Shown here one piece after another: positions 24,338 through 31,761 of a DNA stretch of 64,000 nucleotides; positions within the stretch are counted from its first letter, which is position 1, and the number at the start of each line of letters is the position of its first letter. The stretch is from positions 2,016,001 to 2,080,000 of the forward strand of contig OZ250186.1 in NCBI GenBank assembly GCA_965238275.1, given 5' to 3'. The position numbers and the translations under genes were made by a program. Source of the stretch: Nitrosopumilus sp. (lineage in GTDB: Archaea; Thermoproteota; Nitrososphaeria; Nitrososphaerales; Nitrosopumilaceae). The notes beneath the pieces are model-generated. The model saw only the letters and a program-made list of their open reading frames with translations. It was not told the origin of the DNA and ran no database searches.

Positions 24338-25345
24338 TTGAACTACAACTCCTTTGAGAATCCGGGACTGGTAAAGGTTCTCAGGTTCCTGCAGGCACAC
24401 AGCGACGAATACCTGTCAGGGCAGGACCTGAGCGACGTGCTGAGGATCAGCAGGGTGGCAGTATGGAAGCACATCAGGAAGATCCGGGAACTGGGTTACT
24501 CTGTAGAATCAAGACAAAAGCTTGGATACAGGCTCTTGGCAGACTCTGACAGACTGCTGCCGTGGGAGGTTACCTCAGGACTGAAGACTGATGTCATCGG
24601 GCAGAGGGCATACTACTTTGAATCCACAGACTCCACCCAGGCGCAGTCCCTAAGGCTTGCAGCGGATCCTGCAAACAACGGGGCCATAGTAACTGCGGCA
24701 AGGCAGACTGACGGAAGGGGAAGGAGCGGGAGGAGGTGGATCTCGCAGGATGGCGGGATCTGGTTTTCAGTCATACTGCAGCCGGAATTTGAGATCTCGG
24801 ATGCCACGCTGTTTCCAATTGCGTCATCAGTCGCCCTCTCAGAGGCAATAGAGAAGACGTTTGGAATTTCTCCGGAGTTGAAATGGCCAAACGACCTGAC
24901 CATTAACGGCAAAAAGGTTGCAGGGATGCTAGTCGATGCGTCGATGGAGTCAAACAGGATCCAAAACATGATCCTCGGGGTGGGGATAAACTTCGATGTC
25001 GATACCGGCAGAATAGAGGATGCGCTAAAGGACAGCCCGGGATTCTACGGTGCATCGTCGCTGAGCCACGACGGGGAAAAAAAGGTCAGGCCGGTGCAGC
25101 TGGTCCAGGCATTCCTGATTGCGCTGGAAAGAGTCTGCAACGAACTGGGTGCAGGGCGTGCAGAAAGGATAGTTTCAGAATGGACGGGGAGATCATCTAC
25201 CATCGGGAGGCATGTGGAACTGGATGCGCCGGACGGAAGAATCAGCGGGAGGGCCGTAAGGATTGACACGGATGGCGCCCTGGTGGTCCTGCAGAGTGGC
25301 GTATCACACAGGATCATAGCAGGGGACATAACAAGTTCGTCCTGA
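24338..25345 (+). CDS. birA: Bifunctional biotin-protein ligase/repressor
   Basis: N-terminal HTH SRVAVWKHI; QTDGRGRSGRRW; KWPND; KKVAGML. Confidence 0.95.
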   Translation: MNYNSFENPGLVKVLRFLQAHSDEYLSGQDLSDVLRISRVAVWKHIRKIRELGYSVESRQKLGYRLLADSDRLLPWEVTSGLKTDVIGQRAYYFESTDSTQAQSLRLAADPANNGAIVTAARQTDGRGRSGRRWISQDGGIWFSVILQPEFEISDATLFPIASSVALSEAIEKTFGISPELKWPNDLTINGKKVAGMLVDASMESNRIQNMILGVGINFDVDTGRIEDALKDSPGFYGASSLSHDGEKKVRPVQLVQAFLIALERVCNELGAGRAERIVSEWTGRSSTIGRHVELDAPDGRISGRAVRIDTDGALVVLQSGVSHRIIAGDITSSS

Positions 25346-25617: not shown

Positions 25618-26196
25618 ATGCAATCAAATTCCCCCAATGATATTACAGACCGCTACAAGCATTTGTCGCTGTTTTGGACCGACATCCTACACCTGATGTC
25701 AGGCAAGCCACATGCGCTTACCTCCGTGGGTCCGATGAGGGCGTTTGCTACAAACTCAAAAAAAATCTCCACGGAGATGATTGAGATTAACGAGGACCTG
25801 ATGGAATTCAACAAGTACCTTGCAGAATACTATGAACAGCTCATGGAGACGTGGAATACTGCCCAGAAAAAGGTCAACCAGAAGGCGCTGAAGATTCCCC
25901 GGGATACAGAACAGGCAGAGGCCCTCAAAAGGGCATGGATAAACATCTTTGACAATGACTTTACGGAGCTGTTTGATTCTGCAAAATTCGGGGAAAATTA
26001 CGGAATGCTAGTCTCCAAGGAGCTAGAGCTGGCAAAGCACTGGAATGTCATAGTCAGCACCATCCTAAAGTCTGCAAACATTCCAAGCAAGGAGGAGATG
26101 GACGAGATATACAAGGAGGTTCACTCTCTTAAAAAACGAATTAGCAGGCTGGAGATGGAGCTAAAAAAGGCGGGAATGAGAAAAAATGCAAAGTAG
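25618..26196 (+). CDS. phaE: Class III PHA synthase subunit PhaE
   Basis: IPSKEEMDEIYKEVHSLKKRI tail; overlaps phaC start. Confidence 0.85.
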   Translation: MQSNSPNDITDRYKHLSLFWTDILHLMSGKPHALTSVGPMRAFATNSKKISTEMIEINEDLMEFNKYLAEYYEQLMETWNTAQKKVNQKALKIPRDTEQAEALKRAWINIFDNDFTELFDSAKFGENYGMLVSKELELAKHWNVIVSTILKSANIPSKEEMDEIYKEVHSLKKRISRLEMELKKAGMRKNAK

Positions 26197-27250
26197 TCCC
26201 AGGCTGGATCCCAGAATAATAGAGGAGATGATCAGGTTCGGCGAGAACGTGGTCAAGGCGCCAAGGATGGTCGCAGCGCCAGACGAGATCAACATGGAGG
26301 TAACCCCGCACAGCGTGGTGCAGAAGATCGACAAGACAAGGTTGCTGCGCTACAAGCCCCTTACAGACAGGCAGCACAGGACGCCGTTGCTCATATCGTA
26401 TGCCCTGATCAACAGGTTTCACATACTGGACATCCATCCCCAAAAGAGCTGGATACGAAACCTGCTGCTGCAGGGGTTTGACGTATACGTGCTGGACTGG
26501 GGAACGCCGACCAACATGGACAAGTATCTTGATTTTGACGACTATGTAAACGGGTATCTGGATTATTACGTAGAGTACATCAAAAACGAGTCAGCAGTCG
26601 AAAAGATCTCCCTTCAGGGGTATTGCACAGGCGCCACCATCACCACGGTATACGCAGCGCTGCACCCGGAGAATGTAAAGAACTACGTATCAACGGCGCC
26701 TGTCATTGACGGATGGCACGACACCACCGTAATCAGCAATCTTGCAAAGCACATGGATGTGGACAAGATGGTAGAGACTATTGGAAACATGCCCCCGGAG
26801 TTCATGTACTACTGCTTTTCGGTGCTCAAGCCGTTTGAGCAGGGACTGGAAAAATATGTCAACTTTTTCAAAAACATAGACGACAAAAAATTTGTCGACG
26901 GCTTTCTCAGAATCGAGCGGTGGTTAAGCGACACGCCGCCGATTCCAGGCGAGCTGTTCAGGCAGTGGATCAAAAACATCTACCAGGACAACCTGCTAAT
27001 CCAGAACAAGATGTACGTGGGCGGGGACCACATAAATCTGAAGAACATAGACATGCCTGCATTCACCCAGATAGCAGTCGGGGATCATCTGGTGTCCCCG
27101 GAGTGCAGCATGCCGCTGCACTACGCCATCGGAAGCCAGGACAAGACGATGAGGATATACCCGTCAGGCCACGTTGGAATGATCGCCAGCTCCCTGTCGC
27201 AAAAAAGGGTGCTGCCCGAGCTGGGGCAGTGGCTTGCCGAGAGATCATAG
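26186..27250 (+). CDS. phaC: Class III PHA synthase subunit PhaC
   Basis: PLLISYALINR..LD, LDWG, GYCTG catalytic Cys, DHLV, GHVG. Confidence 0.93.
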   Translation: MQSSPRLDPRIIEEMIRFGENVVKAPRMVAAPDEINMEVTPHSVVQKIDKTRLLRYKPLTDRQHRTPLLISYALINRFHILDIHPQKSWIRNLLLQGFDVYVLDWGTPTNMDKYLDFDDYVNGYLDYYVEYIKNESAVEKISLQGYCTGATITTVYAALHPENVKNYVSTAPVIDGWHDTTVISNLAKHMDVDKMVETIGNMPPEFMYYCFSVLKPFEQGLEKYVNFFKNIDDKKFVDGFLRIERWLSDTPPIPGELFRQWIKNIYQDNLLIQNKMYVGGDHINLKNIDMPAFTQIAVGDHLVSPECSMPLHYAIGSQDKTMRIYPSGHVGMIASSLSQKRVLPELGQWLAERS

Positions 27251-27392
27251 GCCGTGTGCACGAAAGTCTGCAGGATCATGACTGCGCCCGTCAGATGCCG
27301 TGTGATTCGCCTCCAAGGATAATGCGTGCCAGGACCTGGCAGCAGCAGCCCCGTCATTCCCGAAGGGATTGGACAAGAACCAAGCCCGGGCG

Positions 27393-27412
27393 GGCAGGCA
27401 GGCAGGCAGGCA
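27393..27412. repeat. (GGCA)5 microsatellite
   Basis: Direct reading. Confidence 0.8.
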
Positions 27413-27490
27413 GGACGTCAGAAAAGGACGGCAGTCCGCGCATCACATTCACAACGACAGACATATTACGTATTCAATGAAAATCATGGC

Positions 27491-27910
27491 ATGAAGGATG
27501 TTAGCAAACTGCTGGTCCCCCTTGACGGATCAGAAAACTCCATGAGGGGCCTGGAGATGGCAATTGTCCTTGCCAAACAGTGCAACGCATCCATTACATC
27601 GGTGCATTCCATACACACCCAGTCACACTCGTCGTTTCAAAGCATGCACGTGAATACTGAGGGTACAGACGAGTACATACAGAAAGTGATGGAAAAGGCC
27701 GAACACAACGTGACAGAGAAGGGGATCAAGTTTGACTACAAAGTGCTAAACGGCGACATAGGATACAACATAATCAAGTTTGCCCAGGAGAACGCCTTTG
27801 ATATGATCGTAATGGGTTCGCGCGGAAGGCACGGCATAAAGATGCTGTTTGGGAGCGTGACAAACTCTGTCCTGCAGTCCTCAAAGATTCCCGTGCTTGT
27901 CGTAAAGTAG
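27491..27910 (+). CDS. Universal stress protein
   Basis: LLVPLDGS, IVMGSRG..GSVT, PVLVVK. Confidence 0.92.
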   Translation: MKDVSKLLVPLDGSENSMRGLEMAIVLAKQCNASITSVHSIHTQSHSSFQSMHVNTEGTDEYIQKVMEKAEHNVTEKGIKFDYKVLNGDIGYNIIKFAQENAFDMIVMGSRGRHGIKMLFGSVTNSVLQSSKIPVLVVK

Positions 27911-27915
27911 TTCTT

Positions 27916-28389
27916 CTACGACAGTCCGTGCTTTTTAAAGTATTTTTGATGGTACTCCTCTGCACGATAGAACACGGGTGCCGGCACAATCGTAGTCACG
28001 ATGGGTCGGTCGTACCGTTTCGAGCCATCCAGCCGTTGTTTGGAGGTCTCTGCTGCATCCTTTTGTTCCGGGTTGTGATAGAATATTGCCGAGCGGTACT
28101 GGATGCCAACGTCAGGTCCCTGCCGGTTTAGTGCGGTCGGATTGTGGTTGTTCCAGAATATATCAAGGAGATCGTCATAGGAGATGATCTCCGGGTCGTA
28201 GTCGACCTCCACTGCCTCTGCATGTCCGGTCCTGTCGGTGCACACCTCCTCGTAGGTGGGGCTCGGTATGCTGCCGCCGGTATACCCGGCAGCGGTGGAT
28301 CTCACGCCGGGTGTCTTGCTAAACAGATCCTCGACATGCCAGAAGCATCCTGCGCCAAACGTAGCCTTCAAGTTGGCAGGTATTGGCAC
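27916..28389 (-). CDS. msrA: Peptide-methionine (S)-S-oxide reductase
   Basis: [26 protein letters not shown]. Confidence 0.95.
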
Positions 28390-28559
28390 CTGTCAAATTA
28401 AAACCATGCCATTGTACACGCGCCCCCCATACGGGACACTCAAAACAATGGACTTTGGCATGCGCTAGCCGTCAGTAGCGTCTCGAATATAAAAAAATAT
28501 CAGGTGGCCGTCGCTGTAAGGCTGCCCGGCCGCCGGATTATAAAAAAATCAGATTATAG

Positions 28560-28985
28560 TTATTTGGTCTTTTGTACGAATATAGAAACCCATGACTGGA
28601 AGATGTTCTTGTTTAGATCAACGAATGATTTTGTGTTGTCGTTGAATGTCTTGATGTTTCTCTGTGCTGCATCGATGGTTGCAAGTGCAATCTGGTTCTG
28701 GGTTGTTGCAGTCTTGATTACCTCGTTGCTGGCACTCTGGATTGTCTTAAGTGTGATTTCAGGAATCGTGGCTGCAAGTCCGGTCTTTGCTACATATGCC
28801 TTTTGCAGTTCAATAGCTGAACCTGTAATGCTCTCATATGCCTGAATGTACTCCTGCTGCATGTTGGTAACTGCCTGGTGGTACTGTGGCACTGACTGTC
28901 TGATGGCGCTAAACACTTTGTTCGTGTTGCTCTGATACATGGAAAATATGTCCTTTGGGTGTTCTGTGTGTTCTGTTTTACTCAT
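28560..28985 (-). CDS. Putative phasin (PhaP-like)
   Basis: Gln/Thr/Ala-rich amphipathic helical 141 aa; coupled to AbrB gene; near phaEC. Confidence 0.55.
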   Translation of the reverse strand: MSKTEHTEHPKDIFSMYQSNTNKVFSAIRQSVPQYHQAVTNMQQEYIQAYESITGSAIELQKAYVAKTGLAATIPEITLKTIQSASNEVIKTATTQNQIALATIDAAQRNIKTFNDNTKSFVDLNKNIFQSWVSIFVQKTK

Positions 28986-29407
28986 TTTTTCACCTCCTCA
29001 TTATTTGATTTTTTTGCTATTGGCAGTACAATTACTTGAACCAGGTCACCGTCCGAAAGGCCAAGCGCGTTGCGCTCAGCTTCCGGAATTGAGATCCTGC
29101 CGTTGCTGCTGATGGTCGTCTTGTATGCACCCCAGTTCATAAAGCACGAAAACATCTGTCCGATGTTAAACATCGTATCCATGCCCTTGTTCTGCATCGA
29201 GTACATGTTCTGCATCAGGTCTGACTGGGTCTGTTTGGTCTTATCAGATATCTCCTTCAGCGTTGTCAGGGGGTTGAATGTCTGGTTGTTCTGATTCGTC
29301 ATCAGAGAGCCAAAGTTCTTTACGAACTCGGCTTGTGCGTTGCCGCTCTTTTGAATCCAGTCCCTGAACATCTGTGTTGGGTCGTATTGGTTCTCATTAC
29401 CGCTCAT
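28982..29407 (-). CDS. AbrB/SpoVT-domain regulator, PhaR-like
   Basis: C-terminal ISSNGRISIPEAERNALGLSDGDLV; helical Gln/Met-rich N-terminus. Confidence 0.75.
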   Translation of the reverse strand: MSGNENQYDPTQMFRDWIQKSGNAQAEFVKNFGSLMTNQNNQTFNPLTTLKEISDKTKQTQSDLMQNMYSMQNKGMDTMFNIGQMFSCFMNWGAYKTTISSNGRISIPEAERNALGLSDGDLVQVIVLPIAKKSNNEEVKK

Positions 29408-29413
29408 TGGTAA

Positions 29414-29527
29414 GGGGAGGGATACCCAGATCTATCTCCTCAATTCCAAATCATGGCGCCGATGACATGGCAGCAAGCAGGGATGCCAAATGTTTGGGGG
29501 AGGGATACCCTCATGATTAGGGATGCC
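29414..29527. promoter_or_regulatory. Repeated AGGGAT(A/G)CC operator-like motifs upstream of the AbrB gene
   Basis: Copies at 29418, 29479, 29501, 29519; 14-mer ggggagggataccc at 29414 and 29497. Confidence 0.5.
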
Positions 29528-29773
29528 CCCTCAAAAAGGTGCCTCTGACTTGGGAATTGTTTTTGCTGCATGCCTTATTCTTCAGAAACGCCGGTCTGCA
29601 CGGGTATCATCAGGACATGTTTTATTGTGTTTTTCCTGATCAGCGTTGGGCTCCCCGCGTCAGTATCTGGGATGGGCGGATTGTTTGTACCGGTGTATCA
29701 GGCTCATTTGGCAGCACTTACCATGTCACGCAGCCGCCTTAATCAGGCCAGACGATGCGTTGTGCATGAATTC

Positions 29774-30583
29774 TCAGGCATCGTCTCCGTCAAAAAATCT
29801 GAGAACCGATGCCACAAATGCGTCAGAATCATGCACGTATGGGGTGTGGCCGGATCCATTCATTACAAGAAGCCGGCAGTCTGGAATTGCAGAGGCAAAA
29901 TCATCTATGAATCTGATCGGGATAACCGGATCATTGGAACCCCAGACCAGCATTGTGGGGGCGGAGATTGTCGCCAGGTCCGAACTGGTCAGTTTTGAAT
30001 TCTGCAGCCCCAACAGGGCAGACATGAAGGCAAATTTGGAGTTGTGCATCATCATCCTAGAGACAAAGCCATCAACAATGTCCGGGTCGGCATGGGCATC
30101 AGAACCACTCATCATCTCAAATGCCTTTGTGGCATTGTCATGGTTTGGGTATAATGCAGCCATGACATACGCGTCCAGGGCGGCAGTGGATCTTTTCATA
30201 AAGCCTGAAGGCGATACCAGTACAAGCCTTTCAACGTTTTTGGGATGGGATATGGCATACGCCGCAACAATCTGCCCCCCCATTGAAGATCCAATCAGGC
30301 ATGGGTTGGAGATGCCGATGCGTGCGAAAAAACCATTCAAAAAGTCTGAAAAAAAGTCAAGCGTATAATCCAAGGAGGGCCTGTCGCTGTGCCCGAATCC
30401 AAGGAGATCAGGGACCACCACACGGAAGGTCTTTGCAAAGAGGGGGGTTACACGGTTCCACCGGTCAGCAGAAGCGCCTAGACCGTGCACCAGAACCAGG
30501 GTTCTTTTGGAACTACCAGAGTCTAGATAGCGAACCCTGTGTCCGTCGACAGTGACGAATTTTTCCTTCACTATATCTAACAT
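29774..30583 (-). CDS. Alpha/beta hydrolase (lipase box GSSMG)
   Basis: LVHGLG, PDLLGFGHS, GSSMGG, WGSND, GH. Confidence 0.9.
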   Translation of the reverse strand: MLDIVKEKFVTVDGHRVRYLDSGSSKRTLVLVHGLGASADRWNRVTPLFAKTFRVVVPDLLGFGHSDRPSLDYTLDFFSDFLNGFFARIGISNPCLIGSSMGGQIVAAYAISHPKNVERLVLVSPSGFMKRSTAALDAYVMAALYPNHDNATKAFEMMSGSDAHADPDIVDGFVSRMMMHNSKFAFMSALLGLQNSKLTSSDLATISAPTMLVWGSNDPVIPIRFIDDFASAIPDCRLLVMNGSGHTPYVHDSDAFVASVLRFFDGDDA

Positions 30584-30897
30584 CGTGTTTCATGACTAGA
30601 TAAACCTTGATTCATATCGGTTCGTGGTGGCATACAGTGGACTTTCAGGCAGATGTCGTTTACGATACAGGCAGGCAGGCATGCATAGTACCGGACATAA
30701 TGATCCGCTCATTATCCAGCAAAATCAGGCATGAATTCAAAGGAAAATTAGCGAAACATTATGTCCCCGACTATGCATGCATGGTCGCGCACAGTCACGC
30801 CTGCTGCAAGCAGGATGCGGCTACATCATGCCATGACACCGGGCACAGAGACAATGCCTCAAGGACAGAGGTTAATAGTCACCGGGCCTGAACAAGG

Positions 30898-31761
30898 TTG
30901 AAGATATTTTTGGTCTCAATAAATCCTCTCGATGTCTTTCTATGGACCCTCCGTAGGAATGAAAGGGATGTCATAAACCTCTATGACGCGCTGTCGCCCA
31001 TGATGCAGATTGCCACGGGGGGGAACATGCTTAACTTTGGATACTGGGATGACGGACATCCGGATCCGGTCTCGGCACAGAGAAACCTGTGCAGGCACGT
31101 TGCCGTGATGGCAGAGATGGGGCATGCCGGAACTGTTCTTGATGTTGGAAGCGGGTTGGCTGCCCCGGCATCATACTGGAAGGAGACGTATGAAGATTTA
31201 CAGATATGCTGCGTAAACATCAACTATTCCCAGCTGCGCAGGGGCCTGCACACGAATCTCATATGCGTCAATGCATCATCTACCAGGCTGCCATTCAGGA
31301 ACAACTCCGTGGATCGAATCATAGCCCTGGAATCTGCGCAGCATTTCAGGCCGTTTTCGGATTTTATAGCACACGCCGGCAGGATTCTGTCAGATTCCGG
31401 GCTGCTTGTGCTGGCGGTTCCCGTAACAATGGGCAGGCAGTCTGCCATGAAGCTGGGAATCCTGAAATTTACATGGTCATCAGAGCACTACTCCCTGGAG
31501 CAGATCCGGAAGGATGTGACATCGGGGGGATTTGTGGTGGATGAGGAGGAGATGGTAGGCCGGTCAGTGTATGATCCGCTTGCAGATTATTACATCAAAA
31601 ACCGCAGCACGTTAAGGGAGATCATACTGCAGCAGTATCCGTCATACGCTGAGGCAATTCTCTTCAAATCAGTACAAAAGATGAAAAAGGCATCAGAGGA
31701 CGGAGTGATTGATTATGCGCTGCTGAAGTGCCATTTGCAGGACACCTGCCGGGATGCATGA
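30898..31761 (+). CDS. Class I SAM-dependent methyltransferase
   Basis: LNFGYW, VLDVGSG, ALESAQHF. Confidence 0.88.
   Translation: MKIFLVSINPLDVFLWTLRRNERDVINLYDALSPMMQIATGGNMLNFGYWDDGHPDPVSAQRNLCRHVAVMAEMGHAGTVLDVGSGLAAPASYWKETYEDLQICCVNINYSQLRRGLHTNLICVNASSTRLPFRNNSVDRIIALESAQHFRPFSDFIAHAGRILSDSGLLVLAVPVTMGRQSAMKLGILKFTWSSEHYSLEQIRKDVTSGGFVVDEEEMVGRSVYDPLADYYIKNRSTLREIILQQYPSYAEAILFKSVQKMKKASEDGVIDYALLKCHLQDTCRDA

Follow-up and report, generated by a model that had tools for sequence, protein, structure and literature searches.

How does an archaeon that carries genes for the synthesis of a carbon-storage polymer regulate, coat and retrieve what it stores? Ammonia-oxidising archaea (AOA) count among the most abundant microbes of the oceans and soils. 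Their genome papers list phaE and phaC only, the pair encoding a polyhydroxyalkanoate (PHA) synthase, and canonical PHA depolymerases have been stated to be absent from them (PMC3835317). The locus considered here lies in a stretch of 64,000 nucleotides (nt) from Nitrosopumilus sp. (contig OZ250186.1 of assembly GCA_965238275.1, positions 2,016,001 to 2,080,000), called the window throughout; it belongs to a complete genome of 2.22 Mb (99.9% completeness), and the nearest named homologues of its proteins come from Nitrosopumilus. An earlier annotation made from the letters alone (the original prediction) proposed that the locus holds a complete PHA granule system, with regulator, granule coat and mobilising enzyme alongside the synthase. 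What it observed at the locus held up, as did its regulator; its coat protein is likely by analogy, its depolymerase plausible, and its claim of completeness is not established.

Our reading, to which we give a probability of about 65%, is that phaE and phaC form, together with an alpha/beta hydrolase gene and a phaR-phaP-type bicistron, a five-gene PHA module ancestral to the AOA. The PhaR-like protein, if it acts as its Haloferax counterpart does, would repress the operon that encodes it and be titrated by granules. The other product of that operon, an abundant amphipathic two-helix protein, would coat the granule as a phasin by role with a family of its own, and would be made in large excess over PhaR by way of an invariant GGAGGTG ribosome-binding site. 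The hydrolase, an intact Ser-Asp-His esterase with its own promoter box, would mobilise the polymer, most likely as an intracellular depolymerase or oligomer hydrolase, and the usp and msrA genes would be frequent neighbours that moved into the cluster in the window's genome. What is shown are the genes, with their homologies, synteny, co-occurrence and co-loss; DNA binding, granule binding and the substrate of the hydrolase are what we infer. The genes are as follows.

25618-26196, plus strand: phaE, class III PHA synthase subunit of 192 amino acids (aa), PF09712
26186-27250, plus strand: phaC, class III PHA synthase catalytic subunit, 354 aa, TIGR01836
27488-27910, plus strand: usp, 140 aa, PF00582 at 103 bits
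27916-28389, minus strand: msrA, 157 aa, PF01625 at 215 bits
28560-28985, minus strand: phasin-like helical gene, 141 aa, two long amphipathic helices, without a family match
28982-29407, minus strand: phaR-like AbrB-domain gene, 141 aa, with an N-terminal helical part and a C-terminal AbrB swapped-hairpin DNA-binding domain
29774-30583, minus strand: alpha/beta hydrolase gene, 269 aa, with the motif G-S-S-M-G, candidate intracellular PHA depolymerase

Gene order, synteny and co-occurrence with phaC

The open reading frame (ORF) list and family scans agree with the layout first described: phaE-phaC faces the phasin-like, AbrB-domain and hydrolase genes, with usp and msrA in between. The genes phaE and phaC overlap by 11 nt, and the stop of the phaR-like gene shares the four letters ATGA (28982-28985) with the start of the phasin-like gene. 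The three facing genes had been called unannotated, which is not wholly so for the orthologues: UniProt has the N. maritimus orthologue of the helical protein as 'Phasin family protein', and NCBI has the regulator as an AbrB-family protein. PhaC exceeds the class III cut-off (TIGR01836, 407.4 bits vs 365.3), has its catalytic Cys box G-Y-C-T-G at residue 145 and is 38-40% identical to haloarchaeal PhaC. PhaE scores 43.4 bits on PF09712 (cut-off 25.7), matching the C-terminal part of the model only, falls below the NCBIfam cut-off (38.5 vs 154.95) and aligns with Haloferax mediterranei PhaE (182 aa) at a BLASTP E of 3e-08.

The arrangement is seen again and again in four GTDB families of the order (f1, f3 and f5, with f2/f4 in part) and so is not a product of chance. 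Nitrosopumilaceae loci usually run TFB, phaE and phaC, then on the opposite strand the phasin-like gene, the phaR-like gene and the hydrolase, followed by usp and/or msrA, and the trio of hydrolase, phaR-like and phasin-like genes faces phaC in family f5 too (L007, L017). Within family f3, the hydrolase and phaR face phaC in G120, phaR lies beside the hydrolase with phaC ~500 kb away in G183, and in G137 (genus g26), where no PhaR was found, the hydrolase has a phasin-like gene beside it and is divergent to that gene. In a further four genomes (G076, G147, G235, G291) the trio persists unlinked from phaC. Most Nitrosopumilaceae loci have usp and msrA at the flank of the module; in the window and in G280, its nearest relative, a local rearrangement has them between phaC and the phasin-like gene. 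In the PhaC-less congener G056, TFB is followed by ~560 bp and then by usp, msrA and the methyltransferase gene, with exactly the five module genes missing; since usp and msrA are retained where the module is lost, they are neighbours of it and not parts.

Co-occurrence was assessed by searching the same 301 genomes of the class with PhaC, the PhaR-like protein, the phasin-like protein and the hydrolase, at thresholds of 1e-20, 1e-8, 1e-5 and 1e-30 respectively. PhaC was found in 222 genomes, all of them among the 237 of the window's order and none among the 64 outside it, and the PhaR-like protein, phasin-like protein and hydrolase were found in 213, 214 and 222 of the 301; these counts are descriptive, because related genomes are not independent. 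Among the 222 PhaC-positive genomes the three accompany PhaC in 213, 214 and 220 cases (96-99%), while each is absent from all 15 PhaC-less genomes of the order, so that the genes are not equally present without phaEC, and the refutation named in advance fails. Outside the order, the PhaR-like and phasin-like proteins gave no match in the 64 genomes and the hydrolase two weak ones (~1e-41, family f15). The PhaC-less genomes are spread over nine genera (g1 2/66, g5 2/2, g7 1/4, g10 2/6, g15, g19, g20 3/3, g28 2/2 and g38), and six of the 15, with a completeness of 97-100%, consist of one or two contigs. Three genomes flagged as unpublished (G131, G230, G282) are counted in these tallies, and all four genes were found in each; when they are left out, PhaC, the PhaR-like protein, the phasin-like protein and the hydrolase stand at 219, 210, 211 and 219 of 298.

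Parts of this record, as well as the non-independence of the genomes, weigh against our reading. Physical linkage accounts for most of the co-loss, one deletion removing all five genes, as in G056. No PhaR-like gene was found in nine PhaC-positive genomes (all six of genus g26, with G157, G251 and G258), and the five of these searched again with a same-family query at E 0.01 (four from g26, and G157) were negative once more. The phasin-like gene was not found in eight PhaC-positive genomes, and the hydrolase in two (G251, G298). Genus g26, which includes G137, G169, G184 and G227, has phaC, the hydrolase and mostly the phasin-like gene, with no detectable PhaR-like gene.

Linkage might also be all there is, with the hydrolase a housekeeping esterase (one of BioH type, for example, that works together with the nearby BioC-like methyltransferase and birA) and the AbrB and helical genes an unrelated regulator pair. 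The genes flanking the locus lend this some colour.

24338-25345, plus strand: birA-like biotin protein ligase gene with a helix-turn-helix, directly upstream of phaE
30898-31761, plus strand: class I methyltransferase gene, divergent to the hydrolase, with weak similarity to BioC (34 bits vs a cut-off of 185)

The hydrolase bears a weak likeness to BioH (79 bits vs 207), and co-loss is what a single deletion can give. Yet the methyltransferase, usp and msrA are kept in G056 and G210, from which the hydrolase has gone, and on this ground the BioH/BioC version was judged unlikely. The hydrolase also stays by the phaR or phasin-like gene in families where phaC is elsewhere, the three genes are present together even where unlinked from phaC, and the AbrB protein matches haloarchaeal records alone in 7.3 Gb of plasmids (below). 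We regard mere positional linkage as highly improbable.

The synthase genes invite comparison with those of haloarchaea, with which they share a class III PhaC, a short PhaE (192 aa here, 182 aa there), overlapping genes and a usp gene adjoining phaC; they differ in that the AOA PhaC, at 354 aa, is without the long C-terminal extension of the Haloferax protein (gene of 1479 nt). The adjoining usp is seen both on Haloferax mediterranei pHM300 (L001 6435-6857) and in the ammonia oxidisers, the proteins being 27% identical (E 1e-16). Synthase copies vary, with two full-length phaC genes in the close relative G076 (C1:58907-59968 and 1555166-1556227, 89% and 92% identical to the window's PhaC), 2-4 PhaC-like matches in each of several Nitrososphaeraceae genomes, and one extra, weak PhaE-like match in the window's own genome (C1:365079-365315). 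In the proteome of N. viennensis, PhaE and PhaC decrease under carbon limitation; there an exported-protein gene adjoins phaC, and the sole annotated AbrB gene adjoins a MazF gene (PMC12542715 supplement).

The PhaR-like regulator and its operon

The claim that the AbrB-domain gene encodes a relative of Haloferax PhaR proved to be well founded. The protein exceeds the cut-off of the AbrB-like domain model TIGR01439 (28.7 bits vs 28.3, residues 96-127), remains below threshold on PF04014 (21.1 bits) and aligns with Haloferax mediterranei PhaR at a BLASTP E of 6e-16 (34% identity over 101 aa); a tblastn search with PhaC of the window had led to the pHM300 cluster. Compared by hhalign, a thaumarchaeal profile (12 sequences) and a haloarchaeal PhaR profile (three sequences) match with a probability of 99.7% (E 1.1e-25) over 85 columns that extend upstream of the AbrB domain, and cross-controls in which PhaR profiles were set against those of PhaP gave 0.1-0.3%. 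Plasmids commonly carry AbrB/MazE domains, yet when 72,556 plasmid records (7.3 Gb) were searched by tblastn, the PhaR-like protein returned only six matches, all haloarchaeal, of which at least four are AbrB genes in or beside pha clusters (Haloferax, Halogeometricum, Haladaptatus). The window's own genome holds no second PhaR-like gene.

Both proteins have a helical region followed by a C-terminal AbrB-like domain with the shared pattern FKT-V-S-GRISIP-AER-AL-GDLVQ, and in both systems the gene lies directly upstream of, and overlaps, that of a small granule protein (putatively so here) and is linked to phaEC. The order phaR-like to phasin-like is the same in 11 of the 12 loci with both genes and reversed in G116. 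The differences are of length and layout: Haloferax PhaR has 110 aa, against 141 aa here with a longer, Q/N/M-rich N-terminus, and the annotated pHM300 cluster runs as one co-directional row (the AbrB gene phaR, phaP, phaE, phaC, usp), flanked by maoC/phaJ, where the AOA cluster is convergent and flanked by the alpha/beta hydrolase. Because sequence homology and gene context agree, the 141-aa AbrB protein is assigned to the haloarchaeal PhaR family, of which its sequence makes it a member. Passages of two reviews (PMC9049629, PMC7137286) describe autorepression of phaRP by Haloferax PhaR, a need for the AbrB domain in this repression and a phaRP promoter that is less active in PHA-negative mutants; by analogy, the AOA protein may repress its own operon, bind DNA and associate with granules.

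Two elements of the operon concern how it might be expressed.

28990-28997, minus strand: GGAGGTGA, ribosome-binding site in the last part of the phaR-like gene, with the phasin-like ATG 4 nt further on
29418-29527, minus strand: GGYATCCCT in four direct repeats, upstream of where the phaR-like gene starts

A GGAGGTG site 4-6 nt before the phasin-like start and a T-run after its stop are present in all 12 loci, drawn from two families, while the phaR-like gene starts ~25-30 nt after a TATA box and is without a site of the GGAGGTG type. In relatives, TTTAWATACC lies ~33 to 24 nt ahead of the ATG of phaR and is followed by an ATYCC element and TTACCAATG. In the window this conserved TATA box has been replaced, and regulation in its genome may for that reason differ from that of its relatives, a further point that tells against extending a single mechanism to it. 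The spacer between phaR and the hydrolase (29408-29773) measures 366 bp in the window; most relatives have 29-42 bp there, G280 has 115 bp and G076 has 231 bp.

It is in this spacer that the GGYATCCCT repeats fall: the window has 10 matches where 1.13 are expected, four of them within the 110 bp of 29418-29527. Part of one review (PMC9049629) describes four tandem repeats in the Haloferax phaRP promoter that are thought to bind PhaR, and the likeness is suggestive and tempting, but not conserved. A 13-mer, GGTATCCCTCCCC, occurs at this one spot of the 2.2-Mb genome and in none of ten relatives' loci. A conserved operator was rejected on the ground that GGYATCCCT is absent from the ten relatives' loci; nor is it a genome-wide repeat. 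The array could be a candidate operator array or a remodelled promoter.

The phasin-like helical protein

The protein encoded behind phaR shares the general traits of phasins in being small, non-enzymatic, amphipathic and helical and in having its gene at a pha locus; the further trait of high abundance is known for the N. maritimus orthologue alone. An AlphaFold2 model has helices at residues 13-68 and 76-140 at a predicted local distance difference test (pLDDT) score of 66, and these helices are amphipathic, with a mean hydrophobic moment of 0.325, which is z = 4.6 relative to shuffled sequences (for reference, z is 8.2 for Haloferax PhaP and -1.0 for MsrA). Expression is established in N. 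maritimus, for three orthologues. Part of the proteome supplement for strain SCM1 (PMC11082331) gives Nmar_0992 (142 aa, the UniProt 'Phasin family protein') an intensity of 3.3e10, PhaC 7.5e8, PhaE 5.9e8 and the 141-aa AbrB protein 1.65e8, so that Nmar_0992 is ~44 times as intense as PhaC, a ratio that is rough, as are the others, because Nmar_0992 comes from a UniProt-searched sheet and the rest from NCBI-searched ones (all Glu-C digests). In the peptides given there, those of Nmar_0992 fit our phasin-like alignment A1 and those of the AbrB protein fit the PhaR-like family; the hydrolase does not appear among the matches listed.

Protein language-model neighbours provide a lead in the same direction. 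The ESM Atlas was queried with an orthologue, P0128, that is 62% identical to the window's protein, and the neighbours are accordingly those of P0128: unnamed Nitrososphaerota clusters rank first, and the nearest clusters bearing a Pfam name are PhaP_Bmeg (0.90, 174 shared features), PHA_synth_III_E (0.85), Phasin_2 (0.83) and PHB_acc (0.82), all four of them PHA granule proteins.

Descent is another matter, and here the evidence runs against identifying the protein as a PhaP. BLASTP with haloarchaeal PhaP gives an E of 16, and the profile comparison by hhalign, a test of the kind originally suggested, which had linked the regulators so firmly, gives 2.1% (E 0.022; 18 vs 10 sequences) for the phasins. 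The window's protein matches no Pfam or NCBIfam family at E up to 10. With the curated phasin models Phasin_2, Phasin, PhaP_Bmeg, TIGR01985 and TIGR01837 considered, just one of 18 family members matches Phasin_2, at E 0.0027 and below cut-off, and Phasin_2 finds no match anywhere in the window's genome. Foldseek returned no PDB match for the model, whose confidence is low to moderate. Lacking both PhaP similarity and a curated match, the protein lies outside every known phasin family. The family it does belong to has 576 cluster representatives at E<=1e-3, extends across Nitrososphaerales and includes paralogues, with up to eight matches per genome; several paralogues per genome is itself a feature unlike haloarchaeal PhaP. 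One distant paralogue in the window's own genome is a 139-aa ORF (G000:C1:798811-798978; L004 1267-1686, minus strand; E 7e-4, 19% identity).

What it has in common with Haloferax PhaP is a gene placed after phaR, a similar length (154 aa there, 141 aa here), amphipathic helices, and an abundance far above that of PhaR, reported for Haloferax in part of one review (PMC7137286) and matched by the N. maritimus orthologues in the proteome; what separates them is charge (pI 4.1 and acidic in Haloferax, 9.1 and basic here) and the absence of detectable sequence or profile similarity. The phasin originally proposed thus survives as a role, by analogy from position, ribosome-binding site, amphipathic helices, abundance and language-model neighbours, and not as a family, there being no homology to PhaP. 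The basic pI and the want of homology to any phasin family would also suit a protein that is no coat at all, for instance a PhaM-like tether between granule and nucleoid, a synthase activator, a subunit akin to PhaE, or a protein of general stress or of storage; the language-model neighbours do include PhaE and the PHB_acc domain of bacterial PhaR, and the sheets of PMC11082331 contain other small, abundant N. maritimus proteins with a claim to the part, namely Nmar_1590 (164 aa, UniProt 'Phasin domain-containing protein') and Nmar_1595 (137 aa, 'PhaE'). Set against these are a place directly after phaR with translational coupling, like that of haloarchaeal phaP, the excess over PhaC in N. maritimus, the amphipathic two-helix build and the strict co-occurrence with phaC, and we rate a role other than coating as quite unlikely. 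The helical protein is likely, on analogy, to be a granule coat protein.

The hydrolase, the monomer and carbon storage in ammonia oxidisers

The hydrolase scores 117 bits on PF00561, and G98, S100, G102, G103, D218, H246 and an HG motif are kept in 14 of 14 orthologues from four families, from which the protein is read as a catalytically intact Ser-Asp-His alpha/beta hydrolase. By inspection its translation has no visible N-terminal hydrophobic signal. It is the sole hydrolase whose presence tracks phaC, and it likely has its own promoter.

30596-30604, minus strand: TTTATCTAG box, likely a separate promoter, 13-21 nt upstream of the ATG at which the hydrolase gene starts

This box, or one near-identical to it, stands upstream of the hydrolase in eight of the nine relatives' loci examined.

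The structural model is confident (pLDDT 93.7), and a Foldseek search with it ranks meta-cleavage-product (MCP) hydrolases first (CumD, TM 0.89), followed by phospholipase A and lipases. When the family profile is compared with PDB sequences, CarC (1j1i) leads at 153.9 bits and Bacillus thuringiensis PhaZ (8ynv) comes fourth at 127.6 bits, over the N-terminal half only. The resemblance to that PhaZ (8ynv/8ynw) is one of general build, an alpha/beta hydrolase of ~270-310 aa with G-x-S-x-G and a Ser-Asp-His triad at TM 0.82-0.84; the two differ in the lid region, in the confinement of the profile match to the N-terminal half and in a family score far under cut-off. The MCP C-C hydrolases (CumD, CarC, DxnB2, BphD) are the best matches in sequence and fold, and differ in their setting, there being no aromatic-degradation genes near the hydrolase, which tracks phaC in presence, absence and position; the scores on their own families are likewise low (BphD equivalog 67 vs a cut-off of 462, HsaD 92 vs 400). 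A 270-aa alpha/beta hydrolase encoded on a Haladaptatus caseinilyticus plasmid, two genes upstream of phaR and after maoC (L013 1-602 / L016 176-988), was considered as an orthologue and rejected at 29% identity over 97 aa.

For a depolymerase several of these results are unfavourable. PhaZ appears only at ranks 15-17 in Foldseek (TM 0.82-0.84; 8ynw 0.84), the intracellular depolymerase model NF050089 gives 91.4 bits where its cut-off is 300, standing fifth among 39 matched families, and several other families reach an equal or higher score. Sequence and fold allow the depolymerase reading without singling it out, and the same linkage and co-occurrence would be seen if the enzyme served the PHA module in some other way, as a 3-hydroxyacyl oligomer hydrolase, as a thioesterase or editing enzyme acting on hydroxyacyl-CoA or the synthase-bound chain, or in remodelling lipids at the granule surface. 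In sequence and fold PhaZ is no nearer to the protein than are lipases, phospholipase A and monoacylglycerol lipase, and the score is far under the depolymerase cut-off, both of which speak for such activities; nothing specific favours any one of them, the literature names a missing AOA depolymerase, and this is the hydrolase that tracks phaC. We think them unlikely, if a serious possibility. The depolymerase originally proposed therefore keeps its tight pha linkage and intact triad and loses its family support (91 bits vs 300, with C-C hydrolases and lipases no less close), and intracellular PHA depolymerase is a plausible but unproven function.

The completeness claimed for the system, with its link to 3-hydroxybutyryl-CoA from the 3-hydroxypropionate/4-hydroxybutyrate (3HP/4HB) cycle, fares worst. 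PhaC, whose synthase family is named for (R)-monomers, is taken to require the (R)-isomer. The cycle intermediate, according to part of PMC8287830, is (S)-3-hydroxybutyryl-CoA. The window's genome gives no MaoC/PhaJ match and no acetoacetyl-CoA reductase above cut-off, its best short-chain dehydrogenase/reductase reaching 171.7 bits against 302.1. With the (S)-isomer in the cycle and neither of these enzymes found in the genome, completeness and a cycle-fed supply are not supported, and both absences count against the module as a whole. No route to (R)-3-hydroxybutyryl-CoA being evident, the polymer may use 3-hydroxypropionyl-CoA or 4-hydroxybutyryl-CoA and may not be classical polyhydroxybutyrate (PHB).

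A wider scenario, doubtful as it stands, would have AOA and haloarchaea share an ancestral or exchanged PhaE-PhaC-PhaR 'carbonosome' core, to which AOA added their own phasin family and a new class of intracellular PHA depolymerase derived from MCP-hydrolase-like esterases, with polymer made perhaps from 3HP/4HB-cycle thioesters.

A KEGG survey of 2024 sought PhaR and PhaZ, and its list for SCM1 holds PhaE, PhaC, BdhA, a hydratase and two dehydrogenases only (PMC11082331). Our full-text literature search, with subscription papers outside its reach, met no named phasin, PhaR or depolymerase candidate in AOA; the locus tags Nmar_0991-0994 occur in the main text of no paper it covered, and the sole match joining 'phasin' with AOA genus names concerns, in the text available, SMC complexes.

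Carbon storage in AOA bears on survival of ammonia starvation, and an order-wide module offers three candidates for work at the bench: a regulator whose haloarchaeal homologue is characterised, a coat candidate of very high abundance, and the one hydrolase that tracks phaC, a good candidate for the enzyme that breaks the polymer down. The AbrB-type PhaR is thereby extended beyond haloarchaea and, if the wider scenario is true, the hydrolase would be the depolymerase reported missing in AOA genome papers. The regulation and mobilisation of PHA in ammonia-oxidising archaea thus become directly testable.

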